Virus record (IMG/VR): IMGVR_UViG_3300042914_003096
Span: 1 to 59,728 of that record
Length of the DNA stretch: 59,728 bases
Reading direction: 5' to 3' (one strand)
Source of the DNA: a virus
Lineage: Duplodnaviria > Caudoviricetes
Shown here piece after piece: positions 15,490 through 45,484 of this stretch. How positions within the stretch are numbered: the first letter of the stretch is position 1; every line of letters begins with the position of its first letter. The position numbers and the translations under genes were made by a program. The notes under the pieces were generated by a model, which searched no databases, was not told where the DNA came from, and saw nothing but the letters and a program-made list of their open reading frames with translations.

Positions 15490-16410
15490 ATAGGCCGACC
15501 GAAAGGTTGACACACATAAAAAAAGTGAATTAACACCTCCCTTTCTTTAAGTGTTTAAATTATTAGGTCAATGGGCCGTGTATGGTCCATCCACTTCGGT
15601 GGCTTCTAACCTTCGGGTTAGTTGAAAATAAACTACGAAAGTAGGATAAAGTGAATCAGAAGTGTAACTGATTTGCGTCTTGGGAAACCGAGGTCGAGTA
15701 CACAAGCGGGATACCGTTTAATCTTTAGTACCGAGGGCGACGCTGTAGGGAAAGTGGTTAGATGATTGGGCGATGTGGGTCGTCTGATTGAGGTGGGAAC
15801 ACCAATAGGAATAACCCGTAGGAATTTTGCAAAAAATGTGGTTATCCAATCATATTATTGCGAGTTCCAATATTAAAGGAGACTTAAAACCGAAAGGTAT
15901 GTTGATGTACAGGTGGTGCTGTTATTAACCTTGACCGTTCCCCACCAAGGGATTGATCACGAAGTAGTCTTAAAATATGGAGATGGGGACATTTCAGAGA
16001 GTAGTTGAGTATCGACTCGTTCAAAAGATGGGTTGGCTCGTGGGCGGACCACTACTTTCACAATCCACGACACATAACTTATGGAAACTATTAATTCCCA
16101 AATTAAAAAGAGCATTAAGGAAAAGTGTCCGTCAGGTTTGAATGAAAGGTGACTACATAGTAATGAGCCGTTCATTGCACACAAAGATCCCAAGTCGATG
16201 TGTAATTATCCGAAAAACCTTTAGTCCCGCAAGGACGAACTGGGGAGGCATCCTCGGAAAGAGTCAAGTAAGGTGAGAGTAGTTCAAACCTCAAGGAGTG
16301 GTTCACCTAAATAACCGTCACTGAGAAATACTTCTCAAAAGGAAGTGGATAAGAGTAGAATAAATAATGACTCTAAAGGTTCTCAATAAAACGTGTAATC
16401 TCAGCGTTCT
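15490..16410 (+). ncRNA. Large structured non-coding RNA, ~900 nt (GOLLD-like candidate); ends approximate
   Basis: No credible ORF, raised GC, many tetraloop hairpins (CCAC-TTCG-GTGG, AACC-TTCG-GGTT, CTAC-GAAA-GTAG, ACC-GAAA-GGT, GTCC-CGCAA-GGAC); own promoter and terminator. Confidence 0.7.
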
Positions 16411-16443
16411 TTTTAGGTTTAATCTTATAAGAAAAAAAAATTG

Positions 16444-16476
16444 ATGGATGACGTGAAATTTGTTATCCATTTTTTT
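16444..16476 (+). terminator. Intrinsic terminator after the large ncRNA
   Basis: ATGGATGAC...GTTATCCAT followed by a T run. Confidence 0.65.
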
Positions 16477-17315: not shown

Positions 17316-17337
17316 ATTTATCGATATATTTATTATT

Positions 17338-22736: not shown

Positions 22737-23027
22737 ATGAAAAAAGTAATAAGATTAACGGAATCTGATTTAACAAGAATTGTTAAACGAATTATAAAGG
22801 AAAGTGAAGATGATATGGGTCCTTTATCAGAATTTACTAATGAAGAATTGGAAGAAATTAAATATAAGGTAATTAGATATTTACAACCAGGTTTTTTTGA
22901 TGAATGGGAAGCGGAAAATTATTTATTGTATAATGTTTCGGGTGGTAATAAACATCTTTATAATTCATTGGTTGAGTGGTTAGAACAAAATGGTGTAGAA
23001 TCATATCATCTTAAAAAAATAAAATAA
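22737..23027 (+). CDS. LTESDL-leader family protein
   Basis: MKKVIRLTESDLTRIVKRIIKE. Confidence 0.7.
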   Translation: MKKVIRLTESDLTRIVKRIIKESEDDMGPLSEFTNEELEEIKYKVIRYLQPGFFDEWEAENYLLYNVSGGNKHLYNSLVEWLEQNGVESYHLKKIK

Positions 23028-23030
23028 CAC

Positions 23031-23100
23031 TTGTCAAATAAAAAAAAATACTTATATTTGTAGAAGAAAATTGAACTTTTAGTAAAAACGATATATTTAT
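23031..23100 (+). promoter_or_regulatory. Tandem promoters (host-type plus ATATTTAT type) for tRNA array 1
   Basis: TTG at 23031 with TATATTTG at 23053-23060; ATATTTAT at 23093-23100. Confidence 0.7.
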
Positions 23101-23106
23101 AACGAA

Positions 23107-23217
23107 ATGAAAACACAAATGAAACATATGAACTTTAACACCCCGTGTCAGAATTGGGTCAAGTCGTATATTACGCTTAGTAATCTTCGGTGTCTTTCAT
23201 TTAATTGTGTGATGTAA
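23107..23217 (+). CDS. Putative attenuator leader peptide 1 (36 aa)
   Basis: MKTQMKHMNFNTPCQNWVKSYITLSNLRCLSFNCVM; run of G/C-ending codons unusual for this genome; 3' part is complementary to the terminator 5' arm. Confidence 0.7.
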   Translation: MKTQMKHMNFNTPCQNWVKSYITLSNLRCLSFNCVM

Positions 23218-23274
23218 CGTATCATCAAATATATATAACAAATGAAAGACCCGAACCAAAAGTTCGGGTTTTTT
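23186..23274 (+). promoter_or_regulatory. Antiterminator/terminator switch 1
   Basis: TTCGG(T)GTCTTTCATTT (23186-23202) pairs with AAATGAAAGACCCGAA (23240-23255); mutually exclusive terminator ACCCGAAC-caaaa-GTTCGGGT plus T run (23249-23274). Confidence 0.8.
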
Positions 23275-23284
23275 GTTTTACATT

Positions 23285-23356
23285 GGTCTCTTAGTTTAAC
23301 AGGAAAAATACGACTCTTGTAAAGTTGAGTTGTCGGGTCAGTTCCGACAGGGACCT
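23285..23356 (+). tRNA. tRNA-Thr(UGU), atypical T loop
   Basis: Acceptor GGTCTCT/AGGGACC; CGACT-CTTGTAA-AGTTG. Confidence 0.7.
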
Positions 23357-23368
23357 CAAAAAGAAAAA

Positions 23369-23385
23369 GTTCTTTGACATATTGG
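23369..23385 (+). promoter_or_regulatory. boxA-like antitermination element
   Basis: GTTCTTTGACATATTGG, identical copy at 27981; resembles rrn boxA. Confidence 0.55.
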
Positions 23386-23393
23386 CTTCATTA

Positions 23394-23477
23394 GGAGAGA
23401 TAATCACAGCGGCCTGTGATCCCGTCTTGAAAACGGTGAGTACCGAAAGGTATGGGGATCGACACCTCATCTCTCCT
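23394..23477 (+). tRNA. tRNA-Ser(UGA)
   Basis: GGAGAGA/TCTCTCC; CCGT-CTTGAAA-ACGG; long variable arm TACC-GAAA-GGTA. Confidence 0.8.
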
Positions 23478-23485
23478 CTGTAAAT

Positions 23486-23573
23486 TGCGGGGTAGACGAA
23501 TTAGGCAAAGTCACCAGGTTTTGACCCTGGAGGTAAATTACCATTGGAGGTTCGAGTCCTGTCTACCCTACAA
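23486..23573 (+). tRNA. tRNA-Gln(UUG), atypical (extra variable arm, irregular acceptor/T junction)
   Basis: CCAGG-TTTTGAC-CCTGG; GGTTCGAGTCC. Confidence 0.6.
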
Positions 23574-23575
23574 AA

Positions 23576-23649
23576 GTCTCCGTAGCTTAATCGGGAAAGC
23601 ACCATACTTTTAATATGGGGAGAGTCGGATCGTAACCGGCCGGGGGACA
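23576..23649 (+). tRNA. tRNA-Lys(UUU)
   Basis: CCATA-CTTTTAA-TATGG; D arm GCTTAATCGGGAAAGC; T arm GTCGG-ATCGTAA-CCGGC. Confidence 0.75.
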
Positions 23650-23716
23650 AAAAAAATTAGTAAAAAAGAACGCAATATACCAAAAAATGGTTACTTTTGT
23701 TCTGAAAAACTAAAAA

Positions 23717-23787
23717 GCCCCAATGGCGTAATGGGAGCGTGGTAGTATTACAAACTATCGGTGGTGGTTCAAATCCATCTTGGGGTA
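23717..23787 (+). tRNA. tRNA-Val(UAC)
   Basis: GCCCCAA/TTGGGGT; GTAGT-ATTACAA-ACTAT; GGTTCAAATCC. Confidence 0.8.
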
Positions 23788-23797
23788 CAAAAAATAA

Positions 23798-23870
23798 GGG
23801 AGTATCGGCAGGGTCCTGATCGTGTCTGTAAAACATCGTCTTGGTGGTTCGATTCCATCTGCTCCCACCA
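23798..23870 (+). tRNA. tRNA-Tyr(GUA), atypical (odd D arm, short variable loop); encodes CCA
   Basis: GGGAGTA/TGCTCCC-A-CCA; TGT-CTGTAAA-ACA. Confidence 0.65.
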
Positions 23871-23877
23871 AAAAATA

Positions 23878-23950
23878 GCTCACGTAGCTTAATTGGGAAA
23901 GCACTTGACTGATATTCAAGAGATAATCGGATCGTAACCGGTCGTGAGCA
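23878..23950 (+). tRNA. tRNA-Ile(GAU)
   Basis: GCTCACG/CGTGAGC; CTTGA-CTGATAT-TCAAG. Confidence 0.8.
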
Positions 23951-23955
23951 CAAAA

Positions 23956-24041
23956 GGAAGGTAAACCTTGATGGTGATAGGGTCCGCCTGCTAAGCGAGA
24001 TGTACCCGTAAGGGTATTTGGTTCGATTCCAATGTCTTCCT
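23956..24041 (+). tRNA. tRNA-Ser(GCU)
   Basis: GGAAGGT/GTCTTCC; CGC-CTGCTAA-GCG; variable arm TACCC-GTAA-GGGTA. Confidence 0.75.
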
Positions 24042-24045
24042 CAAC

Positions 24046-24114
24046 TCCCGTGTGATCAGGGATCAAAGTTGGCTCATATCCGACTTTAGAGTGGTTCGAT
24101 ACCACTACACGGGA
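24046..24114 (+). tRNA. tRNA with CAU anticodon (Met or Ile2), shortened D arm
   Basis: TCCCGTGT/ACACGGGA; GTTGG-CTCATAT-CCGAC; AGTGG-TTCGATA-CCACT. Confidence 0.6.
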
Positions 24115-24120
24115 CAACAT

Positions 24121-24194
24121 GGTGTATGTAGCTCAGTTGGGAGAGTGTCGGTTTGTGGATCCGAAGGTCGTGGGATCGTGACCCACCATACACA
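24121..24194 (+). tRNA. tRNA-His(GUG)
   Basis: G-1, GTGTATG/CATACAC; TCGG-tTTGTGGAt-CCGA. Confidence 0.8.
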
Positions 24195-24290
24195 CAAAAT
24201 AGTTCACAACGGACAAGGCTTAGGCGTATGAAACAGGACGGTGGGATGCGAGTGGTTGACCAGAACTATTTTTTTGATTATTGTTGTTTT

Positions 24291-24803
24291 ATGAAATTGT
24301 TTATTCCCTTAATTTTACTTTTTTTTGTTAGAGGGCTTTCACAACCATATACAAACACAATTGATGATTTTAAATTGTTCATTCAAAAACAAAAAAATAT
24401 CAAATTAGAAAAGGGACCATATAAGATTCCTGAAGATACTAATCAATACTTTTTTGTTGGAAAAATGATTGATGGGTCCTATTACTTTTTTTATAAACAT
24501 AAAATATCATCGTTTAAGTTAAATGACACTTATGAATATAAAAGTGATGATGAGTTTAATAAAAAACTACAGGAGTTAAAGATCACAGAGCAAAAAGATT
24601 CTGTTATTATTGTAAAAAAAGAAAATGAAAAAGTTTATCGGGATCAGACAATTATAATTTATGATACTGAAAACAAAAAAACAATTAAACAAAAAAGTAT
24701 TAAAGTTCCGTATGCTGAAAGAATTGATAACAAGTGGGTATATTTAAATCCAGCAAGGATCATATGGTTAGATCAAAACGGAAATGAAATAAAAAGAAAA
24801 TAA
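24291..24803 (+). CDS. Secreted hypothetical protein
   Basis: Likely start MKLFIPLILLFFVRGLSQ; the upstream extension in the ORF track overlaps tRNA-His. Confidence 0.6.
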   Translation: MKLFIPLILLFFVRGLSQPYTNTIDDFKLFIQKQKNIKLEKGPYKIPEDTNQYFFVGKMIDGSYYFFYKHKISSFKLNDTYEYKSDDEFNKKLQELKITEQKDSVIIVKKENEKVYRDQTIIIYDTENKKTIKQKSIKVPYAERIDNKWVYLNPARIIWLDQNGNEIKRK

Positions 24804-24840
24804 TATCCGATGTCGGTCCCGAGCTAGGTCGGGCACTACT

Positions 24841-24912
24841 GCAAGACTAGTGTAATGGCTAACACGGATGATTCCAAACCATCAAATTTCTGCTCGACTC
24901 GGAAGTTTTGCG
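24841..24912 (+). tRNA. tRNA-Trp(CCA)
   Basis: GCAAGAC/GTTTTGC-G; GATG-aTTCCAAAc-CATC; atypical T loop CTCGACT. Confidence 0.7.
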
Positions 24913-24958
24913 CAAATTTTAATTTTGCCAATTAAAAAACTTTTTGTATATTTGTGAT

Positions 24959-25459
24959 ATGAAAAAACAATTACCATACGAGTCAACAGGAAATGCAATT
25001 AAAGGTTATACAGAATCCTCAATCGCGAAAGGAGAATCAGGGGATTGTGTTGTAAGAGCATTTGCTTCTTCATTTGATGTTTCATATGATTTTGCACATA
25101 AGTTCGTTGCGGAAGAATTTAAAAGACAACCAAGAAGAGGAACGTATTTCACGGCATCCAAAATGGTTTCACTTTCTGAAGGACTAATTAAAGTTAATGG
25201 TAAAAAGATCTTTCCTGTTGGTACTCCGTCTAAAAGTGTTTTATCTCCTTTTTCTTTGTCTTACAAAGTTAAAGTAAAAGGTGTTGAAAAAGAAAGACAA
25301 ATGACTGTTGGTACTTTTGCAAAGAAAAACCCTAAAGGAACTTTCTTTGTGTTAGTTAAAGGTCACGCTTTCACAATCAAAGATGGTGTTGTGGTAGGAA
25401 ACCCAGAAGACGCAATCAAACTTAAAAGACCTATGAGGGCGGCATTTGAAATTAAATAA
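24959..25459 (+). CDS. Conserved phage protein, possible papain-like Cys/His fold
   Basis: GDCVVRAF...GHAFTIKDG; TATATTTG promoter immediately upstream. Confidence 0.5.
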   Translation: MKKQLPYESTGNAIKGYTESSIAKGESGDCVVRAFASSFDVSYDFAHKFVAEEFKRQPRRGTYFTASKMVSLSEGLIKVNGKKIFPVGTPSKSVLSPFSLSYKVKVKGVEKERQMTVGTFAKKNPKGTFFVLVKGHAFTIKDGVVVGNPEDAIKLKRPMRAAFEIK

Positions 25460-25514
25460 AAAACTATGGTGAACAACTCTCTATGGTTCCACAAACAAAT
25501 AAAAAATAGAAATT

Positions 25515-25970
25515 ATGAACAGGGTTTTTAGAAAGGTTACCGGAGAATCTGTTCCTGATATTGTAAAACACACATTAGACATTGTAAATGACTGCCCCTG
25601 GATTGAAGTACATATTGGAACTGACTCACAAAACCATAGAAGAAGTACCATTTATGTTACGGCAATTGCTTATAGATTTGGGAACCGTGGCGTTCATTAC
25701 ATCTATCACAAACAAAAGGTAAAAAAGATCCGAGATAAATGGACACGTTTATGGAATGAAGCTGATTATTCAATTGAAGTTGCAGAGTGGTTGACCCAAA
25801 AGGTAAATGTAAAGGTGGAAATAGATTTAGATTACAACAGCGACGAAAAACACTTCAGCTCAAAATTGGTCCAACCTGCTGTTGGGTGGGCAACATCTTT
25901 GGGTTATAAAGCAAATGTTAAACCACATAACCAAATTGCAACAAGGGCGGCAGACCACCACTGCCGCTAA
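25515..25970 (+). CDS. RNase H-like YkuK (DUF458) family protein
   Basis: HIGTDSQ, EADYS, IDLDYN and AADH acidic motifs. Confidence 0.8.
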   Translation: MNRVFRKVTGESVPDIVKHTLDIVNDCPWIEVHIGTDSQNHRRSTIYVTAIAYRFGNRGVHYIYHKQKVKKIRDKWTRLWNEADYSIEVAEWLTQKVNVKVEIDLDYNSDEKHFSSKLVQPAVGWATSLGYKANVKPHNQIATRAADHHCR

Positions 25971-25975
25971 TTTAT

Positions 25976-26048
25976 GAGAGGTTGTCCGAGCGGCGTTAGG
26001 TCTATGGTTGCAACCCATAGTACGGGGGTTCGAGTCCCTCACCTCTCT
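25976..26048 (+). tRNA. tRNA-Cys(GCA)
   Basis: GAGAGGT/ACCTCTC-T (U73); TATGG-TTGCAAC-CCATA. Confidence 0.85.
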
Positions 26049-26056
26049 CAACATAT

Positions 26057-26130
26057 GCCCCTATGGTGGAATAGGTATACACGTCAGATTTAGGATCTGA
26101 ATTTTGCAGGTTCGAGTCCTGCTAGGGGTA
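26057..26130 (+). tRNA. tRNA-Leu(UAG) lacking the long variable arm
   Basis: GCCCCTA/TAGGGGT-A; TCAGA-TTTAGGA-TCTGA; 5-nt variable loop. Confidence 0.8.
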
Positions 26131-26241
26131 CTAAACTTTTTTTAATATCGATATATTTATAATAAAAATATTGATATGAAAAAAATTATAAGATTAACAG
26201 AATCAGATTTAACAAGGATTGTTAAACGTGTGATTAAAGAA
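26109..26241 (+). repeat. Direct repeat copy 1 (tRNA-Leu 3' end, promoter and 22 leader codons)
   Basis: 133 nt, near-identical to 26787-26919. Confidence 0.85.
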
Positions 26242-26739
26242 CAATCAACACCAACACCTAAACTTGAGGATTATGAAAAAACATTTTTAATAAAGTTATT
26301 AACTGACATAAAAAATATATTATCGGATATTTTTAAAAGAACCTACGATGAAAATTTAGATGAAGGAGACAGAGTACAAGTATTAACTATGTCAATTTTT
26401 GATGACTACATAAAAAAAGTGAGTGACTTGAATTACAAAATTAGACCGTCACAATTAAAATGGTCTGATTTATATGGTAGACTTAGCTCAAGTGATAGGT
26501 TAACTATATTGGAACCTAATAGGGCTAAAAGAATTTGGACATTTATCGCCCCTTACCTCATTTCAAATTCCGATGTTAGTGACAATAATATTTTTATAGA
26601 TTTATTTAAGGGTGAACTAAAAAATAATCTAAAAGAGTTTCTTAGTCGTCTAAAGTCTTATAATAAATATATTATACAGACAATCAGTTTACCAAAAAAA
26701 CCTTTACAACAAATACCAACAAATGACGAAACCCCCTGA
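26176..26739 (+). CDS. LTESDL-leader family protein
   Basis: MKKIIRLTESDLTRIVKRVIKE. Confidence 0.75.
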   Translation: MKKIIRLTESDLTRIVKRVIKEQSTPTPKLEDYEKTFLIKLLTDIKNILSDIFKRTYDENLDEGDRVQVLTMSIFDDYIKKVSDLNYKIRPSQLKWSDLYGRLSSSDRLTILEPNRAKRIWTFIAPYLISNSDVSDNNIFIDLFKGELKNNLKEFLSRLKSYNKYIIQTISLPKKPLQQIPTNDETP

Positions 26740-26786
26740 ACTAACAATTAAAAAATCACAAAAAAACTTATTAAAGAATCTTTGAT

Positions 26787-26919
26787 GGTTCAAATCCTGC
26801 TAGGGGTACTAAACTTTTTTTAATATCGATATATTTATAATAAAAATATTGATATGAAAAAAGTAATTAGATTAACAGAATCTGATTTAACAAGAATTGT
26901 TAAACGTGTAATTAAAGAA
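26787..26919 (+). repeat. Direct repeat copy 2
   Basis: GGTTCAAATCCTGCTAGGGGTACTAAAC...ATTAAAGAA. Confidence 0.85.
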
Positions 26920-27126
26920 ACTCATCCATTAGAAGGTGGTCCTGGTTATATGACTAAACACCATATTGGTGTTCTTAAACGACTTATATCTGATTTAGAA
27001 AATGAAGATACAAGTAATCTATCGGATGAAAATTTAAGAGGATATTTTAAAACACTTAATCATCTTAAGAATGCACTTAAAGGGGCAAATGTTAAATATA
27101 AAGAAGAAACAGGTGAAGATATATAA
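26854..27126 (+). CDS. LTESDL-leader family protein
   Basis: MKKVIRLTESDLTRIVKRVIKE. Confidence 0.75.
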   Translation: MKKVIRLTESDLTRIVKRVIKETHPLEGGPGYMTKHHIGVLKRLISDLENEDTSNLSDENLRGYFKTLNHLKNALKGANVKYKEETGEDI

Positions 27127-27142
27127 AAGGTTTTAAATAAAA

Positions 27143-27469
27143 ATGAAAAAAGTTATTAGACTTACCGAATCTGATCTTGTAAGAATCGTTAAACGTGTAA
27201 TTAAAGAATCTAAATTCCGATCTCAATTCGGTGATATGGGTTATTGGATTGACGAAAAAGGTAATTGGGTGGAATTTGATAAGGATCTGGAAAAAACCGG
27301 ATATTATGATTTTGAATATGAACCATTCACCGATGTTGAAGATTATGAAGAATTACCTGACGATCTAAAAGAAAAACTATTTCCTGATAGTAAAATTGGT
27401 AGGGAATTTTTTAACAAGTACAAAGAAAAACATGGTAAGTTTCAGTACTCAAGAAAAAAAGATATATAG
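27143..27469 (+). CDS. LTESDL-leader family protein
   Basis: MKKVIRLTESDLVRIVKRVIKE. Confidence 0.75.
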   Translation: MKKVIRLTESDLVRIVKRVIKESKFRSQFGDMGYWIDEKGNWVEFDKDLEKTGYYDFEYEPFTDVEDYEELPDDLKEKLFPDSKIGREFFNKYKEKHGKFQYSRKKDI

Positions 27470-27470
27470 T

Positions 27471-27794
27471 ATGAAAAAAGTAATTAGATTAACAGAAAGA
27501 GATTTAACTCGTATTGTTAAACGAGTGTTTAAAGAAAATGAAGAGGATATGATTCGTATCCCAAGAGAATATAAAGGTATCAGAGCGGAAGTTGGATCAA
27601 AGGCGTCACCTCAAGACATTATTGATATGTATAACGAAGTGGTTGCTTCTGAAGGAGACACACCTTTTTTAGTTGAATATTCAGAATACGGAACTGAAGG
27701 TATGTTTTATAATGAAGAAGGTGATGAAATTCCTGTTGATGCTATTCTTGATGAATTAAACTATGGATTAGTTGGAGAAGAAGAAGATTTTTAA
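27471..27794 (+). CDS. LTESDL-leader family protein
   Basis: Start corrected to ATG 27471: MKKVIRLTERDLTRIVKRVFKE. Confidence 0.75.
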   Translation: MKKVIRLTERDLTRIVKRVFKENEEDMIRIPREYKGIRAEVGSKASPQDIIDMYNEVVASEGDTPFLVEYSEYGTEGMFYNEEGDEIPVDAILDELNYGLVGEEEDF

Positions 27795-27853
27795 AAAAAC
27801 TTGACACTTTTGAAAAGTTGTATATATTTATAACAAAAATAATAAAAACGCAA

Positions 27854-27928
27854 ATGAAAAATTTACATATTATATCTTTAAGAGGGTTGGCGGGTGCTGA
27901 GGATACTTTCTGTATGGAGATGGTATGA
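27854..27928 (+). CDS. Putative attenuator leader peptide 2 (24 aa)
   Basis: MKNLHIISLRGLAGAEDTFCMEMV; last codons complementary to the terminator 5' arm; ATATATTTATAAC upstream as for leader 1. Confidence 0.7.
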   Translation: MKNLHIISLRGLAGAEDTFCMEMV

Positions 27929-27980
27929 TAATTTAACATATAAATTTTTCAAACCCATCTCCAAAAGAGGTGGGTTTTTT
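27915..27980 (+). promoter_or_regulatory. Antiterminator/terminator switch 2
   Basis: TGGAGATGG (27915-27923) pairs with CCATCTCCA (27955-27963); alternative terminator AAACCCATCTC-caaaa-GAGGTGGGTTT plus T run. Confidence 0.75.
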
Positions 27981-27997
27981 GTTCTTTGACATATTGG
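27981..27997 (+). promoter_or_regulatory. boxA-like antitermination element
   Basis: GTTCTTTGACATATTGG, identical to 23369; variant GTTCATTGACATATT at ~29092. Confidence 0.55.
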
Positions 27998-28028
27998 TAA
28001 ATTAAAAATTAATTAGTAACTTTGTTTT

Positions 28029-28196
28029 ATGAAAGCAAAAGATAAAAATATCGTACATAATTTGATCATCGGATCCCAGAGACAAAAACAAGTTGATCAG
28101 GGATTCTTTGATGGTAGATTTGTTTCAAGAGTTTATGATTCAAATAAGAATTATACTCGAAAAGAAAAACATAAGAAAAATTATTTGGTATATTAA
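28029..28196 (+). CDS. 55-aa ArfA-like ribosome rescue factor candidate (not in ORF track)
   Basis: DGRFVSRVYDSNKNYTRKEKHKK versus E. coli ArfA [24 protein letters not shown]. Confidence 0.5.
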   Translation: MKAKDKNIVHNLIIGSQRQKQVDQGFFDGRFVSRVYDSNKNYTRKEKHKKNYLVY

Positions 28197-28311
28197 AATA
28201 ATTTTATATCTTTGTTATACACATAAACCTAAGTACCCATACCGCTGACGGTGGGCTAAGTAAGATACAATTTCGTACCGCGGGAAGTAGAATGCTTAGG
28301 AGTGTGTTTAT

Positions 28312-28411
28312 AGTCAGGTGGCGGAATTGGTAACAGTTTATGGGCTATTAAGAATGCTGGTAACGGTAGATAGAGAGATTCTTAATGCAGGTTCAAGTCC
28401 TGTCCTGGCTG
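28312..28411 (+). ncRNA. Leu-type tRNA-like RNA with the anticodon arm replaced
   Basis: AGTCAGG/CCTGGCT, TGGCGGAATTGGTA, T arm GCAGG-TTCAAGT-CCTGT; middle is an ATTAAGAAT/ATTCTTAAT stem with no canonical 7-nt anticodon loop. Confidence 0.6.
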
Positions 28412-28670
28412 CACGTTGAGGGTTCATCACCCCATAGTGTGCCCCACACGATGAGAAACGAAGTGATGTTTCGTAGGGGAACGTACTTTGTCGTATAGGG
28501 AGAACGACTAAGAAAGTAAGTTGTACTAAGTACAGTGGAAACACACACCTCAACAGAGATGGACTGAAAGTTCGCTTGACTGGGAAAGACGAAATGAACT
28601 ATTCCTAACCCACCTTTATGGTGGGGACAACCATAACACCTGTAAGCTGGATAAATGAGGGTGTTACTTT

Positions 28671-28784
28671 AGTCAGGTGGCGGAATTGGTAGACGCAAAG
28701 ATGTTGTGAGTTGGTAGGTAATAACTACTTGGATAGTATCCACACTAGAACTCTCAAATACAGGTTCAAATCCTGTCCTGACTA
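28671..28784 (+). ncRNA. Leu-type tRNA-like RNA with the anticodon arm replaced by a branched domain
   Basis: AGTCAGG/CCTGACT-A, D arm GGCGGAATTGGTAGACGC, T arm ACAGG-TTCAAAT-CCTGT; insert GAGTT...AACTC encloses two hairpins. Confidence 0.65.
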
Positions 28785-28813
28785 CAAAAAAAAATAATTT
28801 TATATAAATTAAT

Positions 28814-28990
28814 ATGGGAAAGGAAATATTTGAAGAATTGGAAAATGAAGTTAACCAAGTATTAGGTTACCTTCCAATTGATAGAGATTTGGTAAAGGAT
28901 TTGATTGATAAAGCAAAAGAAAAGATGAATCAAAAATTTGAGGAACTAAAGGATTTTGATACTTGGAAGGAATGGAAAAATAAAAAGTAA
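28814..28990 (+). CDS. 58-aa hypothetical protein (not in ORF track)
   Basis: MGKEIFEELENEVNQVLGY...LKDFDTWKEWKNKK. Confidence 0.55.
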   Translation: MGKEIFEELENEVNQVLGYLPIDRDLVKDLIDKAKEKMNQKFEELKDFDTWKEWKNKK

Positions 28991-29311
28991 AAAAAGATTT
29001 GGTAGATTAAAATATTCTACTTATATTTGTAAGACAAACAACGGGGGTAGGAAGTTTAGAGATGAGTGTCCTACTCCCGTAAAAAGAAGAAGTTCATTGA
29101 CATATTAAATAAAGGGATAAGGTAACCACGAACCCACTGGTAATAGGCCTTTCTTGAGATGGAATGCAAGATAGAATGTAACTCCTGCCTTATCCCCTTT
29201 TTAAAAATATTGTGGTTGTAAGAAAAGGGAAACTCGTTAAGTACATTAACCTGTTAACGCAAAATGGTGAAACGAGAGTGTGTGTTAACTACTGAACTAC
29301 ATTATTAAAAT

Positions 29312-29366
29312 AGTTAGGTGGAGGGTTATAGGTGCTCCCACACAGGTTCAAGTCCTGTCCTAACTA
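29312..29366 (+). ncRNA. Minimal tRNA-like RNA (acceptor stem, one hairpin, T arm)
   Basis: AGTTAGG/CCTAACT-A; GGAG...CTCC; ACAGG-TTCAAGT-CCTGT. Confidence 0.55.
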
Positions 29367-29371
29367 CACAT

Positions 29372-29442
29372 TGCGGTTTAGTGTAATTGGTAGCACACGG
29401 GGCTCATAACCCTGAGGCCAGGTTCGAGTCCTGAATCCGCTA
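29372..29442 (+). tRNA. Initiator tRNA-fMet(CAU)
   Basis: CGGGG-CTCATAA-CCCTG with three G-C pairs; 1:72 mismatch. Confidence 0.75.
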
Positions 29443-29586
29443 CAACACGGATGAATAGGTGGAAGGGCCTTTCCTGAAAGATGGCTAGCTAGGCCCGTGT
29501 TCATCCTGAGCCAACCAAGCTTTACCACGATACGGGTTCATACCTGTGGGTTGGGGGTGACGATCAGGAAAGACTGATAAATTTAT

Positions 29587-29666
29587 GCTGACGTACCGGT
29601 GGATGCTTATATCATCTATGCCCGTAGAGGAAGTTTAAAACGTTGGTTCGATCCCAACCGTCAGTA
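29587..29666 (+). tRNA. D-armless tRNA-like RNA with UAU (Ile) anticodon and long variable region
   Basis: GCTGACG/CGTCAGT-A; 7-nt linker in place of the D arm; GGATG-CTTATAT-CATCT; GTTGG-TTCGATC-CCAAC. Confidence 0.55.
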
Positions 29667-29761
29667 CAAAAAGATCAACTAGTCACTGTATCCAACCAGT
29701 GGGTGTCAGTAAGTATTCTGAGCGACGTTTAAATCCTGATAGCAATGTTGATTTTTATTTT

Positions 29762-29833
29762 GCGGGTATCGTATAATGGTTATTACTCCACACTTCCAAT
29801 GTGGAGATGAGTGTTCGATTCATTCTACCCGCA
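29762..29833 (+). tRNA. tRNA-Gly(UCC)
   Basis: GCGGGTA/TACCCGC; CCACA-CTTCCAA-TGTGG. Confidence 0.85.
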
Positions 29834-29952
29834 CAAAAACGCTTTAAAGGATTGTGTACAGATCCAGAGTGGGGAGCGGGTCCCACATTTAATTTGATTT
29901 TAAAATAAAATATTGGTATATTTTTTTAAACTAAAAAAACAAATATGAAACA

Positions 29953-30165
29953 ATGAAAATTAAATTAGGATTGTGGTGGTTGGTAGGCACCACAATTATT
30001 TACATCTACATTATGAATCTATTTTTCAATTACGTGATTAATAGGGAAGTTGATGAAATCCTACAAATCGGTGCAAGTTTTATAGCTTTAATTTACACTG
30101 CATTTCAAATAAAGCAAATAGTAAAAGAAGTAATAAATTTATTTAAAAAAGAAGAAAAAGAATGA
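29953..30165 (+). CDS. Small two-TM membrane protein
   Basis: Two hydrophobic segments; coupled to the SPFH gene. Confidence 0.6.
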   Translation: MKIKLGLWWLVGTTIIYIYIMNLFFNYVINREVDEILQIGASFIALIYTAFQIKQIVKEVINLFKKEEKE

Positions 30166-31064
30166 TTAGTGTAATTGTAACTGTAGTATTTTTGATCGTA
30201 GCAGGTGTTATGATCTTTAAATCAAGAATTGATGATGATAACGCGGCACTTGCAAAAGGGATTGTCGTTGGTGTTGTTGGTTTGGTAGTTGGTTTGATCC
30301 AACCTTATTCCCTTGAAAGAATTGATGCTGGACATAAAGGTATTGTTGTTAACCTTTCAGGATCTGAAAGAGGTGTATCTTCATACCAATACAAAACAGG
30401 TTGGGTTGTTTATAACACTTGGTTCACACAAGTTTTGGAGTTCCCAACTTATCAACAACATATTGAATATGATGATCAAATGGTAATAACAAAAGGAGGA
30501 TTTTCTGCAACAATTAAACCAAGTTTTAACTATTCATTAAAACCTGAAGCTATTGGTGATATGTTTGAAAATTTAAGATTGGGAGTTAAAGAAATTGAAC
30601 AAGGTTGGCTTAAAAATGCGATCATCGGGGCTGTTAATGACGTATCAAACACTTGGGAAGTGGATAGCATTTTTGGTCACAGACAGGCGTTTGAATCAAG
30701 TATCGTTGTTGAATGTAATAAAAGACTTGAAAAATGGTTTAACGTTTCACAACTTAGAACAAATATCACACCACCTGAAGCGTTACAAGAGGCAATTATT
30801 GCAAAAACCAAATCTATCCAACAAGCCGAAGCATCCGAACAACAAGCACTTGCGGCAATTGCGGATGGTAAAAGAAAGATCGCAGTTGCAAGAGCTGACT
30901 CGGCTGAAACTATCATTAATGCGAAGGCCGCCGCACTTGCAATGAAACTAAAACAACAAGAATTAACACCACTATATGTTGATTATGTTAAGGCTAACGC
31001 TTGGGATGGTAAACTTCCATCAACAATGACAAGTGGATCTGGAACATTTTTGAACATTAAGTAA
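30162..31064 (+). CDS. SPFH/Band 7/prohibitin family membrane protein
   Basis: N-terminal TM segments, RIDAGHKGIVV, Ala/Glu-rich coiled coil, C-terminal WDGKLP. Confidence 0.85.
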   Translation: MISVIVTVVFLIVAGVMIFKSRIDDDNAALAKGIVVGVVGLVVGLIQPYSLERIDAGHKGIVVNLSGSERGVSSYQYKTGWVVYNTWFTQVLEFPTYQQHIEYDDQMVITKGGFSATIKPSFNYSLKPEAIGDMFENLRLGVKEIEQGWLKNAIIGAVNDVSNTWEVDSIFGHRQAFESSIVVECNKRLEKWFNVSQLRTNITPPEALQEAIIAKTKSIQQAEASEQQALAAIADGKRKIAVARADSAETIINAKAAALAMKLKQQELTPLYVDYVKANAWDGKLPSTMTSGSGTFLNIK

Positions 31065-31176
31065 AAAAAGATTTGGTAGTTTGAAATAAACTACCTATCT
31101 TTGTAAGACAAACAAGATGAGTTTCCCAACACTAAATTGGGACAAGTGGTACACAAGTCCACGACTCATCTTAAAT

Positions 31177-31251
31177 GGTCCGTTCGTCTAGCTGGTTTAG
31201 GACACTTCCCTTTCACGGAAGAGATCACGGGTTCAAATCCCGTACGGACTT
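31177..31251 (+). tRNA. tRNA-Glu(UUC)
   Basis: GGTCCGT/ACGGACT; CTTCC-CTTTCAC-GGAAG; GGTTCAAATCC. Confidence 0.9.
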
Positions 31252-31311
31252 CAATTGGACGAACAACATTGCACACAAGTTGTACCTCTACGGTTTTAAA
31301 GTGTGTTTATT

Positions 31312-31382
31312 GGTCCATTGGTGTAATAGTAACATTTGTCCCTGTCACGGACAAGCCCTCGGAGCGTAACCGGGATGGACCG
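31312..31382 (+). tRNA. tRNA-Asp(GUC)
   Basis: GGTCCAT/ATGGACC-G; TGTCC-CTGTCAC-GGACA; atypical T loop AGCGTAA. Confidence 0.8.
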
Positions 31383-31539
31383 CAATAATTAACTATGATG
31401 CAAGTACTTTTAATATTTTTTATTGGTTATCTTTTTCTTATTAGAAAAAGAACTGATCGTAGATATTAATTAATAATAGGTCCAGTTTCAGGTTGGAAAA
31501 GAGGTAGAAAGTTAAAATAAACAAATAAAAATTTTAGTT

Positions 31540-31722
31540 ATGAAAATGTTGATAACAATGAAAACCTTTATTACCAATATTTTCAAACACAAATGTGAAA
31601 ATGAAAGTAGGGTAATTGGAATTTATGGTGGCGAAAAAGTGAATGGAAAAGTCACCGACGTTACAATCAAATACAGATGTAGAGTATGTAACAACGTTTA
31701 TGAAGTGTGCCAAGTGTTATAA
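31540..31722 (+). CDS. Small Cys-rich hypothetical protein
   Basis: HKC...CRVC pattern. Confidence 0.45.
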   Translation: MKMLITMKTFITNIFKHKCENESRVIGIYGGEKVNGKVTDVTIKYRCRVCNNVYEVCQVL

Positions 31723-31734
31723 TCATAAACGGTA

Positions 31735-31804
31735 GGTCATTGAGCGTGTTGGAGAACGCACCCAGGTCATGGGAGAATAACAGGTTCGATTCCTGTAATG
31801 ACTT
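31735..31804 (+). ncRNA. tRNA-like RNA with a shrunken anticodon arm (4-bp stem, 5-nt loop)
   Basis: GGTCATT/AATGACT; D stem GCGT/ACGC; CCCA-GGTCA-TGGG; ACAGG-TTCGATT-CCTGT. Confidence 0.55.
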
Positions 31805-31813
31805 CAAAAATTT

Positions 31814-32084
31814 GCACCCGTAGCTCAGCTGGAATAGAGCAACTGCCTCAAATAGGGGGTGTTATATCAGAAATGGTATAATAGAATTCATCAAATTCGG
31901 GGAAGCCTTTAAAATGGTAATCCCGAGCCAAGCCCGAAAGGGAAGGTGTAGAGACTTGACGGTGAACACCTAAGTTGTAAAAAATAAGGTGATGAGAAAG
32001 TCCAGACCACAAACAGAAATGGCAGTGAAAACTGTAGTGGGAAGTCTAAGCAGTAGGTCCTTGGTTCGAATCCAAGCGGGTGTA
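31814..32084 (+). tRNA. tRNA-Arg(UCU) interrupted by a group I intron (exons 31814-31848 and 32045-32084)
   Basis: Joined exons give ACTGC-CT|TCTAA-GCAGT; acceptor GCACCCG/CGGGTGT. Confidence 0.85.
31849..32044 (+). ncRNA. Compact self-splicing group I intron (IC3-like), 196 nt, no ORF
   Basis: U.G pair in P1 (GCCUC/GGGGU), AAATTCGGGGAA, AATCCCGAGC, GTAGAGACT, AAAGTCC, terminal G. Confidence 0.85.
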
Positions 32085-32265
32085 CAAACAGGTAGGTGGA
32101 TTGTGTTACACACCCCACTGACGAGTGGGACGGTCCTAATAATAAGTTACGAAACGATATATCATTGAGCGATTCGGATCGGGTAACAAATATGGGCTAA
32201 GGGGGTTAGATTCCCCCACCTTGTCGATATTGACAAATATAAATTATTATACTACTATTACTTAA

Positions 32266-32338
32266 AGTCGGGTAGCTCAGTTGGTAGAGCAATCTCAAAA
32301 AAAGAGACGTGTCATTGGTTCAATCCCTTTCCCGACTT
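32266..32338 (+). pseudogene. Phe-like tRNA with an all-A anticodon loop (pseudo-tRNA or decoy)
   Basis: AGTCGGG/CCCGACT; TAGCTCAGTTGGTAGAGC; TCTC-AAAAAAA-GAGA; weak T stem. Confidence 0.5.
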
Positions 32339-32419
32339 TTTTATATTTTTTTTCATTTACCATTTGGCAGATTAAAAATTTTGCCTATCTTTGTAATGTA
32401 ATCATAAAACAAAGACACT

Positions 32420-33860: not shown

Positions 33861-35459
33861 ATGACAAATAACCGTAAGATATTATTATACTCATCATTAT
33901 TTTTGATGGTGGTATTCCTTTTAACTAAAATCACTATATTAATAGGAATTATTAACCCCAACACGGCAACTAGGGTTATTGAAATGTCTTGTTTTTTAAT
34001 ATTTTCACCAATATTTTATTTTTTAATAAAATTACAAACTGTTGAGTTAAAAGGTAATTTAATAAAACAAATTAAAGACAGTGAGGAGTTTATTGATGCC
34101 GCAACAATTGTTTCTGTTGCCGATAAGTACGGTAAGATTACCTACGTTAATAAAAAATTTGAAGAAGTATCGGGATGGTCATTGGATGAGGTTAAAGGTA
34201 AGGATCATAGTGTTGTTAATTCTGGATTACAACCTGACGGGTATTGGGGTAAGATGTATGAAACCGTAATGAAAGGTGAAATATGGAATGATGTTGTAAC
34301 CAATAAAGGAAAGTCAGGTGAGTTATATTATGTTGACACATACATCAAAGCAAAATTTGATAAGGAGGGTAAATTAGAAGGATTTTCATCAATTAGACAA
34401 GACATTACTGAGCTTAAGAAAAAAGAAGTTGACATTCGTAATAGAATGAATGCTATAAATAAATCTAACGCAGTTATTGAGTTTGATTTAGAAGGGAACA
34501 TTATTTTTGCTAACGACTTGTTTTTAAATACTATGGGTTATTCTTCTCAAGAAGAAATAGTAGGTAAACATCATAGAATTTTTATAGACGAAGACCACTC
34601 AAAAAGTGAAGATTATTCTCTTTTTTGGAAAAAATTAAATGAGGGTATATTATTTACAGGTGAAATTACTAGGGTTAAAAAAGACGGTTCTTTAGTTTAT
34701 TTACAGGCAACTTATAACCCTATTCTTGGATTGGATGGTAAAATTTACCGTGTTATGAAAATCGCAACAGATGTATCCAATTCGTATGAACAAAGAAAAG
34801 AGATTGAAAAGAAAAACACTTACTTAGAACACGCAGCAAAGATATTAAGACACGACATGCATTCAGGTATTAACACATATATGCCAAGAGGGTTAAGTTC
34901 ATTGGAAAGAAGATTAAGTACCGATGACATTAGTTCATTAAAAATTGAGGCACCTATTAGAATGATTAAAGAAGGGTTGAAACATTCTCAAAAAGTTTAT
35001 AAAGGTGTTTATGAATTTACCAACCTAGTTAAAAAAGATGTTGTGTTAAATAAAACTGAATGTAATTTAAAAAACATTTTAGAAGATTACCTGTCATCAA
35101 CAGCGTATAGTAGTCAAGTTATTATTGATGAGTTACCAACAATAGAAGTAAATGAAGCATTGTTTTGTACCGCAGTGGACAACTTAATTAGAAACGGTTT
35201 AAAGTATAATGATTCAGATACTAAGTTTGTTAAAATATATTCTGATGAAAATAATATTTATATACAAGACAATGGTAGAGGGATTACACAACAAGATTTT
35301 GATTACCTACGTAAACCATACGTAAGAAAAGAAGGACAAACAGAATCAGGTACAGGTTTGGGTTTAAATATTTGCGTTGCAATTTTAGAAGAACATGGGT
35401 TTAACATTACCTGTGAGAAAAATGAAATAGGGACAAAAATGAAAATAAAAATAAAATAA
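33861..35459 (+). CDS. Membrane PAS-PAS sensor histidine kinase
   Basis: Two N-terminal TM segments, two PAS/PAC domains, H box RHDMHS, N box NLIRNGLKY, QDNGRG, GTGLGL. Confidence 0.92.
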   Translation: MTNNRKILLYSSLFLMVVFLLTKITILIGIINPNTATRVIEMSCFLIFSPIFYFLIKLQTVELKGNLIKQIKDSEEFIDAATIVSVADKYGKITYVNKKFEEVSGWSLDEVKGKDHSVVNSGLQPDGYWGKMYETVMKGEIWNDVVTNKGKSGELYYVDTYIKAKFDKEGKLEGFSSIRQDITELKKKEVDIRNRMNAINKSNAVIEFDLEGNIIFANDLFLNTMGYSSQEEIVGKHHRIFIDEDHSKSEDYSLFWKKLNEGILFTGEITRVKKDGSLVYLQATYNPILGLDGKIYRVMKIATDVSNSYEQRKEIEKKNTYLEHAAKILRHDMHSGINTYMPRGLSSLERRLSTDDISSLKIEAPIRMIKEGLKHSQKVYKGVYEFTNLVKKDVVLNKTECNLKNILEDYLSSTAYSSQVIIDELPTIEVNEALFCTAVDNLIRNGLKYNDSDTKFVKIYSDENNIYIQDNGRGITQQDFDYLRKPYVRKEGQTESGTGLGLNICVAILEEHGFNITCEKNEIGTKMKIKIK

Positions 35460-44761: not shown

Positions 44762-45484
44762 ATGGAAACAAAATATTATTTGTATATTAAAACAAGTCCG
44801 TTAGGGTTGAGATATCTTGGTAAAACAACAAAAGACCCAATCACCTATTTAGGTAGTGGTAAGATTTGGAAACGACACATTAAAAAACATAATTTTACCA
44901 TTAATGATATTGAAACGGAAATTGTTTTTGAAACAAATAATGTTGATGAGTTAATTAAAAAAGGTATAGAATTAAGTAATTTATATAATATTGTTGAATC
45001 AAAGGAATGGGCTAATTTAAGAGAAGAATCTGGTGATGGTGGAGATACTAGTAAGTTTATTGATTTTTCAAACCCATCTTTCCACAACTCAAATAGAAGT
45101 AAACATTTAAATATTTGGTTAAATGAAGTAACAGAAGAAGAAAGAAAAAAAATTCTAAGAGACAGAATTAGTAAAGTGAATTTTAAAGAAAGAGATAAAA
45201 AAACAAAAGAAAATACAGATTGGGATAGTTGGCGAGAATCTATCAAAAATAGGAAAACCGACTATTCTAAATTCTTAAACAAAGTACACGAAAAGAATAA
45301 AAAACCAGTATTACAGTTTGATATGGATGGTAATTTTATACAAGAATTTGATAGTGCTTCATCTGCCGCTAAATCATTGGGTTACGATAATGGTGGAAAC
45401 ATAACAAATTGTTGTAAAGGTAGGTGTAAATCTACTTTAGGTTATAAATGGAAATATAAAAATATAGAAAATGAAAGCAAATAA
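44762..45484 (+). mobile_element. GIY-YIG (Seg-like) homing endonuclease with C-terminal NUMOD1 HTH, inserted in thyA
   Basis: YLYIK...RYLGKT...YLGSG; KPVLQFDMDGNFIQEFDSASSAAKSLG...GYKWKY; own ATATTTAT motif. Confidence 0.85.

Follow-up and report, generated by a model that had tools for sequence, protein, structure and literature searches.

The transcription attenuators of the amino-acid operons (trpL, hisL, thrL, ilvL, leuL and pheL, with thrL and ilvL being multivalent) have a short open reading frame (ORF) between the promoter and the first gene, mutually exclusive RNA helices (1:2, 2:3 and 3:4), an intrinsic terminator before the first gene and a second RNA segment so placed that a ribosome terminating at the stop codon masks it. 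The leader described here appears to have the same elements. It lies within IMG/VR viral record IMGVR_UViG_3300042914_003096, a contig of 59,728 nucleotides (nt) that was analyzed as a whole and is called the window below, and it stands directly in front of an array of transfer RNA (tRNA) genes. On the basis of sequence comparisons and predicted RNA folds, we think it probable, if far from certain, that this leader, which we call att1, is a ribosome-dependent (leader-peptide) transcription attenuator of the phage tRNA array, and possibly a sensor of tRNA supply that employs many codons.

The locus departs from the amino-acid operon leaders in that its target is a tRNA array rather than a set of biosynthetic enzymes and its carrier is a phage. 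There is no run of a single codon in the leader; instead, 12-16 amino acids are represented once or twice each, in a selection that matches the downstream tRNAs, and the first RNA segment (region 1) includes the start codon. The Rfam models Thr_leader (27.4 bits, threshold 55) and Trp_leader (25.5 bits, threshold 41) scored below threshold over 23182-23278, and these matches were set aside together with a sub-threshold match to MicC, as all of them run to the terminator (23275-23285). At gathering score, Rfam yielded nothing at the att1 site. T-box riboswitches, which control genes for aminoacyl-tRNA synthetases and amino-acid genes, bind uncharged tRNA through a specifier codon and the T-box sequence, respond to one tRNA each and contain no ORF. 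They resemble the reading proposed here in that tRNA status chooses between terminator and antiterminator, and differ from it in that the leader described here has an ORF; no T-box match was found within 22900-23600 at E values up to 10. A third comparison is with the leaders of the resistance genes ermCL, ermBL, bmrB and msrD, where ribosome stalling on a short ORF reportedly changes the folding of the RNA further on and in some cases relieves an intrinsic terminator, as is proposed here. Stalling in those leaders is reported to depend on a drug and on the nascent peptide sequence, whereas the att1 peptide is poorly conserved and the proposed signal is codon decoding. To our knowledge, no case is known in which leader-peptide attenuation controls tRNA genes, and a literature search at the level of abstracts, with most subscription journals outside its coverage, turned up no account of phage tRNA arrays under the control of a leader peptide. 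The phage records in GenBank gave tRNA-sized matches only and no relative of the leader.

Leader ORF and predicted mutually exclusive folds

A preliminary description of this DNA, made from the sequence alone, had proposed a 36-codon leader with a run of 14 different codons (ACC to AGT), many of them G/C-ending in an A/T-ending genome. All of this holds: the ORF is present at 23107-23217, the run occupies its codons 12-25 (23140-23181), and 8 of the 14 codons end in G or C, as compared with a G+C content at third codon positions of 0.196 in 40 long ORFs. Among 10606 background stretches of 14 codons, 417 were made up entirely of distinct codons, 34 had at least 8 G/C-ending codons and none had both properties. 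The codons CCG, GTC, TCG, ACG and CGG each account for no more than 9% of their own synonymous family.

The same description had drawn a pairing of 16 base pairs (bp) with one bulge between 23186-23202 and 23240-23255, and had placed its target in the left arm of the terminator that precedes tRNA-Thr; both points stood up to analysis. The helix consists of 16 Watson-Crick pairs, running from T23186-A23255 to G23190-C23251 and, past the bulged T23191, from G23192-C23250 to T23202-A23240. Its duplex energy is -20.8 kcal/mol (RNAduplex; z -5.0), and none of 300 shuffles of the upstream stretch did as well. It is absent from the 25 longest repeats of a gap-free finder (63 pairs found), presumably because the bulge splits the helix. 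The terminator stem (C23250-C23256:G23262-G23268, with a 5-nt loop) is followed by TTTTTTGTTTT at 23269-23279, 5 nt short of tRNA-Thr(UGU), which starts at 23285, and a motif scan of the window found no promoter motif in between. A consensus scan lists the terminator hairpin on the minus strand only; the plus-strand T-run directly follows the hairpin.

Predicted folds of the window's RNA depend on which of its segments are available (Table 1). When the right arm of the terminator is left out, the minimum-energy structure contains the 16-bp helix with a small hairpin at the stop codon as its cap (-23.5 to -23.7 kcal/mol for 23067-23260, 23105-23260 and 23186-23260). In the full-length fold, 23105-23116 is paired with 23189-23202 and an extended terminator forms, at -48.4 kcal/mol vs -43.4 kcal/mol with the antiterminator forced. 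The terminator has a probability of 0.42 when the 5' part (region 1) is omitted, which imitates its coverage by a ribosome, and of 1.00 when segment 2 is omitted as well. A 'T-forced' fold was distorted by its constraint and is disregarded here. The three mutually exclusive helices of these models are the classic 1:2, 2:3 and 3:4 layout of a leader-peptide attenuator. The 1:2 helix is also found in the family consensus (AUGAAA:UUUCAU, 98.7% paired), in columns that are almost invariant and were partly fixed by the search pattern, and in most clades it does not overlap with the GGG core of segment 2. When given a short left arm, the automatic finder of segment 2 chose codons 16-19 in the window (TTGGGTC, -11.6) and a similar site in the relative L108, which could be a second, weaker partner or a chance match.

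The positions of these segments suggest how translation might govern the choice between them. Segment 2 lies within codons 27-32 and the stop codon follows 13 nt after it; therefore, segment 2 would be covered by a ribosome at the stop but left exposed by one that stalls no later than about codon 23. In the scheme that we favor, with leader translation, ribosome footprints, direction of regulation and the signal sensed all as we infer them, transcription would begin at the promoter P1 (~23065) and the 36-codon leader would be translated. A ribosome running smoothly to the stop at 23215 would mask segment 2 while the polymerase makes 23240-23279, whereby the terminator would form and the transcript would end before tRNA-Thr. 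If no ribosome were loaded, the start region would pair with segment 2 and the terminator would form in this case also. A ribosome stalled within about codons 3-23, on the other hand, would leave segment 2 free to pair with 23240-23255, which would block the terminator and allow read-through into the tRNA genes. For nearly every downstream tRNA the leader has one or two codons, many of them rare and G-ending, so that scarcity of any one of these tRNAs would be enough to cause the stall. The result would be a negative feedback on the phage tRNA supply, with induction when tRNAs are scarce. The earlier suggestion that the geometry of the site fits stall-induced antitermination gains support from the alternative folds, the in-frame ORF and, as described below, the covariation of the terminator, the existence of two paralogous families and the match between codons and tRNAs.

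Table 1. Positions of the att1 leader, its predicted RNA segments and associated features in the window
Feature	Positions	Strand	Basis or remarks
Putative promoter P1, Bacteroidota type (TTG ... TATATTTG)	23031..23060	+	consensus motif; predicted start near 23065 given G at -5
Conserved AT-rich motif (TTGAAC..CGATATATTTATAAC)	23071..23102	+	nearly invariant across 27 homologues
Region 1, start-codon stretch, can pair with 23189-23202	23105..23116	+	full-length minimum-energy folds
Leader ORF, 36 codons	23107..23217	+	ATG 23107, TAA 23215-23217; frame kept in 27 + 21 homologues
Run of 14 different codons, 8 G/C-ending; proposed stall (sensor) zone upstream of segment 2	23140..23181	+	codons 12-25; sensor role inferred
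Segment 2, predicted 5' arm of antiterminator, within codons 27-32	23186..23202	+	duplex and folding
Small hairpin over stop codon, caps antiterminator helix	23206..23235 (approximate)	+	folding; homologous family helix
Segment 3, predicted 3' arm of antiterminator (A-rich flank plus terminator left arm)	23240..23255	+	sequence, duplex, folding
Predicted intrinsic terminator, 7-8 bp G+C-rich stem, 5-nt loop, T6GT4	23249..23279	+	folding, family covariation
First tRNA block: Thr(UGU), Ser(UGA)-like, Gln, Lys, Val, Tyr, Ile, His	23285..24195	+	tRNA calls
att2: promoter, 24-codon ORF 27854-27928 (1-based; TGA stop), terminator 27951-27977	27801..27980	+	5' part homologous to att1

Conservation of the leader and of its paralogues

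A search with a pattern of the start region, in which only ORFs of 34-37 codons were retained, gave 27 distinct homologues of att1 that are 69-93% identical; the hits that were dropped had no blastn similarity to the leader, except for those of a third family (att3, see below). The upstream protein, used as another search handle, led to 79 loci that mostly share a common N-terminal motif only, some of which happened to carry att1 or att2. In the 27 homologues the ORF is kept at 35-36 codons. A second pattern, which ignored the start, added 25 loci, comprising 21 intact ORFs of 34-36 codons from the homologous ATG, 2 that are cut by the end of the locus and 2 that are unrelated. None of the 48 complete homologues (69-93% identity) has an interrupted frame, and the indels inside the ORF among the 27 homologues measure 3, 3 and 3 nt, vs 1-7 nt for indels in the flanks. 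The entropies of the three codon positions are nearly flat (17.4/16.8/20.7), and the median ratio of nonsynonymous to synonymous substitution rates (dN/dS) is 0.81 over 36 pairs of 9 representatives. To judge from these alignments, the leader ORF is constrained as a frame and not as a protein, and since the frame is kept and the peptide is not, it behaves as expected of a leader peptide.

Much of the conservation is at the level of nucleotides, third codon positions included. Folding also predicts several small helices, and there is covariation in the hairpin at the stop codon (alignment columns 166-181), where 96.8% of cells are paired and both partners have changed at 3 pairs. These features would be accounted for if the tRNA precursor began with a structured 5' leader that is not translated, for example a processing or stability element or a binding site, and if the open frame were a by-product of nucleotide conservation; by a rough estimate rather than a computation, a 35-codon frame is open by chance in ~5% of AT-rich sequences. 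We regard this explanation as highly improbable in view of the three 3-nt indels and the 48 open frames, and because no Rfam family reaches threshold here and the match of leader composition to the tRNA set is meaningful only in the reading frame.

The terminator and its junction with the tRNA genes are conserved features of the family. In 26 of the 27 homologues tRNA-Thr(UGU) comes directly next. The sole exception, at 1695-1935 of locus L101, has tRNA-Trp and then tRNA-Cys after the terminator. Three pairs of the terminator stem have changed on both sides in 10-15 sequences each, and 98.6% of cells are paired. Such a strong, covarying terminator, which forms at equilibrium in all relatives scored, might also be a fixed device for timing or insulation, such that early transcripts of the host polymerase stop at 23279 and a later phage antitermination factor or modified polymerase reads through, with no role for the ORF or the alternative helix. 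Two promoter-like classes in the window would fit temporal classes of this kind. We nevertheless consider a fixed terminator quite unlikely, since it leaves unexplained the frame-preserving indels, the location of segment 2 inside the ORF in three families, the covariation of the antiterminator and the match between codons and tRNAs; a Pfam scan of 10 large ORFs, which is weak evidence, suggested no antiterminator protein.

The family consensus of the antiterminator consists of a GGG:CCC core, a small internal loop and 3 further pairs, and 90.4% of its 156 cells pair. At the column pair 141:215, 14 sequences have C-G and 8 have U-A. None of 500 shuffles reached the observed percentage paired or covariation score, 2 of 500 reached the number of both-side changes, and slid registers were at most 55% paired. 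Without the right arm of the terminator, the CCC of the left arm is paired with the GGG of segment 2 in the minimum-energy fold of all 27 sequences, at -8 to -16 kcal/mol outside the window's clade. The duplex of segment 2 with the left arm clearly beats shuffles only in the window's clade and in L104, L111 and L126 (-13.9, p 0.01-0.03). Because of these results for the family as a whole, we take the 16-bp helix to be a clade-specific strengthening of a weaker pairing that is conserved in position.

Two paralogous modules show the same layout of ORF, antiterminator and terminator. In att2 (Table 1), segment 2 (27908-27916, with GGAGATGG at 27908-27915) is complementary to the left arm of the terminator (27952-27961). 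Across the 19 sequences of this family the ORF persists, with indels of 3 nt. Pairing in the 8-bp antiterminator amounts to 94.7%, a percentage that 0 of 500 shuffles reached, and double changes have occurred at 3 of its pairs, one of them, for instance, being G-C in 9 sequences and U-A in 7. In 5 relatives tRNA-Leu(UAA) starts 26-28 nt after the att2 terminator; at this place the window, L082 and L018 carry an insertion of protein genes under a promoter of their own. The start region of att2 may also form a helix with 27931-27951 (21 nt, 86%). The third family, att3, is represented by 12 loci (L102, L110, L121, L085 and L156-L163) and has an ORF of 30-33 codons, which in two loci is read as 41 codons from an upstream in-frame ATG. 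Its order is terminator, small protein gene and then tRNAs, and its segment 2 occurs as U-UCGGG with left arm CUCGA-A or as G-UCGGG with CCCGA-C, which is a compensated U-A/G-C difference. In each of the three families, 23-34 nt separate the stop codon from the left arm. An unrestricted scan of all loci analyzed, which asked for a micro-ORF, a terminator and a duplex at least as stable as -9 kcal/mol, yielded 22 distinct peptides, and att1, att2 and att3 account for 18 of these. A terminator lies within 45 nt upstream of 37 of 476 tRNAs, and 32 of these are att1, 3 are att2, 1 is an att1 cut by the end of its locus and 1 is of another kind.

Some of the features described so far could also belong to an autonomous micro-gene that encodes a small peptide or a dual-function small RNA. 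The tRNAs would then be transcribed passively through its somewhat leaky terminator, and segments 2 and 3 would pair in the released RNA without acting as a switch. In favor of this, the unit possesses promoter motifs and a strong terminator of its own, its 5' motif also precedes ordinary small protein genes at 26152 and 26830, att2 stands alone in the window with another promoter coming next, the ORF is conserved in 48 homologues, and the segment 2 duplex is at chance level in most att1 clades. The dN/dS of ~0.8 and the flat codon-position entropies show, however, that the peptide sequence is under little selection, and the 5 nt between the T-run and tRNA-Thr, in a junction kept in 26 of 27 sequences, leave no room for a promoter. 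A micro-gene would also leave unexplained the match between leader composition and downstream tRNAs, and the complementarity of segment 2 to the left arm has been maintained by compensatory changes in three diverged families. We therefore find this alternative unlikely, although it deserves to be taken seriously.

Leader composition and the downstream tRNA genes

The amino acids encoded by the leaders correspond to the tRNA genes behind them in several respects. The two modules att1 and att2 occur together in 10 genomes. In all of these (10/10), leader 1 contains each amino acid whose tRNA is encoded between the modules, and in 8 of the 10, leader 2 contains each amino acid whose tRNA is encoded after att2. 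Leader 1 is nearly always without Asp, Glu and Gly (Asp occurs in 4 and Gly in 3 of 27), and the tRNAs for these residues lie behind att2. Leucine in leader 1 is encoded by CTN almost throughout (2 of 27 have one TTA or TTG), with tRNA-Leu(UAG) downstream, and in leader 2 by TTR, with tRNA-Leu(UAA) downstream; none of 9806 proteome windows of 34 codons is free of Asp, Glu, Gly and TTR codons altogether. With all windows of the phage's own long ORFs as background, the full tRNA set of the window is covered by 96 of 9766 proteome windows and that of the relative L118 by 21 of 9806. In L118, 33 of 34 leader residues are within the set and 30 of 34 codons are readable by the array, values that 34 and 29 of 9766 windows, respectively, match. 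Readability at the level of codons reaches only p 0.03-0.12 in most relatives.

In att3 the downstream tRNAs are only those for His, Trp, Asn, Ser, Arg, Ile and Met, and the conserved core of the leader consists almost wholly of these residues, with both AGA and CGT codons in the core and both tRNA-Arg(UCU) and tRNA-Arg(ACG or GCG) downstream. The att3 leader of L157 has 19 of 32 residues in the five-amino-acid set His/Ile/Asn/Arg/Ser, which was matched by 0 of 9846 and 0 of 6498 windows. Upstream of segment 2, residues of the set make up 11/18, 15/19, 12/19 and 7/18 positions, as compared with 4/13, 4/13, 2/12 and 3/11 from segment 2 onward. Taken over the three cases, the match between leader and tRNAs is very strong in att3, significant in the att1 relatives and weak for the window's own array; some of the tRNA calls by ARAGORN are uncertain.

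Such a match might mean that the leader ORFs are codon panels that constantly test the supply of the tRNAs encoded behind their own terminator, with a shortage opening that terminator. The att1 panel would comprise Thr, Gln, Lys, Val, Tyr, Ile, His, Trp, Cys, Leu-CUN and others, the att2 panel Leu-UUR, Met, Gly, Glu and Asp, and the att3 panel His, Trp, Asn, Ser, Arg, Ile and Met. Supply might fall short early on, while phage tRNAs have yet to build up in the infected cell, or following the cleavage of host tRNAs by defense nucleases. We put this idea forward tentatively and at somewhat less than an even chance; it is consistent with the use of rare codons ending in G, with compositions that differ from cluster to cluster and with where the set residues lie.

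Several observations weigh against attenuation by the leader or against the sensing of tRNAs. For the window's att1, the enrichment of residues within the tRNA set is not significant (20/35, matched by 2089 of 9726 windows), as is also the case for att2 (8-34% of windows), and 13 of 35 codons of the window's leader (Asn, Phe, Pro, Arg, AGT and Met) are without a cognate tRNA in its own block. The tRNA sets vary among relatives while the leader hardly changes, and hence there is no tight co-variation between the two. Conservation of the nucleotides in CCG, CAG, TGG, TCG and ACG could stem from RNA structure rather than from codon identity. The att2 module of the window is followed by a promoter and a protein gene (55-codon ORF), with no tRNA. 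The best duplex between segment 2 and the left arm is no better than shuffles in 17 of 27 homologues (RNAduplex, p 0.31-0.85) and marginal in 5 more (p 0.05-0.10). At equilibrium the terminator wins, with a probability of at least 0.98, in 25 of the 26 sequences other than the window (the reading of 0.00 for the 26th, L091, is an artefact of column offset), and as it wins almost everywhere these probabilities do not discriminate. The strong 16-bp helix is specific to the window's clade, whose 4 sequences vary there only at 23186-23187 and at the adjacent 23185; being nearly invariant, it has no support from covariation, and a scan of metagenomes added only 2 further copies of this clade. Covariation of the antiterminator in the family rests mainly on one column pair and probably on few evolutionary events, and the structure was derived from the same sequences on which it was scored. 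The three leader families share their 5' ends and ancestry and are not fully independent.

Evidence at the level of RNA comes from contigs of RNA libraries in 2 metatranscriptome runs of 2 studies, which cover 23155-23267 and 23238-23353, and from a relative's contig that corresponds to 23128-23386; the last two bridge the terminator into tRNA-Thr. These contigs cannot give ends, strand or level, their uncovered parts are uninformative and carry-over of DNA is possible, which adds to the points against the reading. Translation, 3' ends at the terminator and regulated read-through are computational predictions. On the other side are the ORF, the three exclusive helices in the window, the conservation and covariation, the linkage to tRNA genes and the match of leader to tRNA set, all of them computed. 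None of the rival explanations accounts jointly for the frame-preserving indels, the covariation of the antiterminator in three families and the match in composition, although each of them explains a part.

Phage setting, neighboring elements and implications

The window is an entire contig with a G+C content of ~30% and nearly all of its ORFs on one strand. It contains a GOLLD RNA, a group I intron and at least 17 tRNA genes across 23285-32339. Its relatives are viral contigs of IMG/VR of up to ~300 kb, and DNA nearly identical to the window is present in metagenomes from lake water. The intergenic regions have numerous TTG...TAnnTTTG motifs, which correspond to the -33/-7 promoter consensus of the Bacteroidota, with G at -5, given in PMC6847099; the same source describes this phylum as being without Shine-Dalgarno sequences. 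Because of this resemblance, we treat the element as putatively belonging to a large phage of a freshwater Bacteroidota host, an assignment made from the promoter motifs alone. The gene upstream of the leader differs between the window and L080, and homology starts just before or at P1. The AT-rich motif at 23071-23102, which recurs ahead of the ORFs at 26152 and 26830, ahead of att2 at 27823 and at 17325, may be either a second, phage-type promoter or an element of the 5' untranslated region. A motif ACTTTT..CGATATATTTATAA is found at 17325, 23092 and 27823 (the last being upstream of att2) and in two identical 63-nt stretches (26120-26182 and 26798-26860, plus strand), where it stands before the ORFs at 26152 and 26830, which start MKKIIRL and MKKVIRL. 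It may represent a class of phage promoters in which A replaces G at the last -7 position.

The tRNA region contains other unusual elements. ARAGORN missed a tRNA at 23394-23476 (plus strand) whose variable arm is long and whose anticodon appears to be UGA (Ser); only the tRNA-Sec model of Rfam detected it (40.6 bits, below the threshold of 47). The motif GTTCTTTGACATATTGG occurs at 23369-23385, 27979-27995 and about 29092-29106, and in most relatives too, in the gap that separates tRNA-Thr from the following tRNA and behind the att2 terminator, ahead of tRNA-Leu or the inserted gene; the insert that follows it differs between L080 and the window, and the motif may be a junction for cassette exchange or a processing signal. 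After tRNA-His there is a G+C-rich stretch of 59 nt (24205-24263, plus strand) that is 91-93% identical to unannotated DNA of many Streptomyces phages and has no Rfam match at E values up to 0.01. Two mutually similar tRNA-like genes with inserted sequence lie at 28310-28420 and 28671-28785 (plus strand), the second of which ARAGORN reads as Ser(AGA) with a 43-nt intron, and more structured-looking RNA is found between the promoters at 28185 and 28999 and tRNA-Met. A 24-codon ORF (31106-31180, plus strand) that follows the promoter at 31073-31103 runs into tRNA-Glu and is flanked by the inverted repeat AGATGAGT/ACTCATCT, and the promoter at 28999 is followed by a similar start (TAAGACAAAC). 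The gene for tRNA-Arg(UCU) is split by a group I intron (31814-32085, plus strand; Rfam 80 bits at 31839-32026, intron of 196 nt according to ARAGORN), and tRNA-Phe (32265-32339, plus strand) is called with the unusual anticodon AAA, relatives having both GAA and AAA forms. Outside the array, the full-length GOLLD RNA (15997-16407, plus strand; RF02032, 333 bits) is located ~7 kb upstream of the tRNA genes and is followed by a terminator-like hairpin at 16443-16471, an ORF of 532 residues with PAS domains and a histidine-kinase ATPase domain (33861-35459, plus strand) is unusual for a phage contig, and a thymidylate synthase is encoded at 45471-46442.

Phage tRNAs have been considered as counter-measures to tRNA-cleaving defenses (PMC10264068, PMC11464382), which would give a phage reason to induce its own tRNAs when cellular tRNAs are depleted; as far as their abstracts show, these papers concern the function of phage tRNAs and not the control of their transcription. 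How phages time or tune their tRNA arrays is a largely open question. If the reading proposed here is true, leader-peptide attenuation, a classic mechanism, would have acquired a new class of target and a new sensor logic based on many different codons rather than a run of one, and the tRNA genes of these phages would regulate themselves, cluster by cluster. The leaders would then provide a cis-acting read-out of tRNA availability, bearing on phage tRNAs as answers to tRNA-cleaving defenses, and this defense idea would become testable with simple reporters. The match between leaders and tRNA sets could also help in predicting the transcription units of phage tRNA arrays and in finding tRNAs that have been missed by gene finders.

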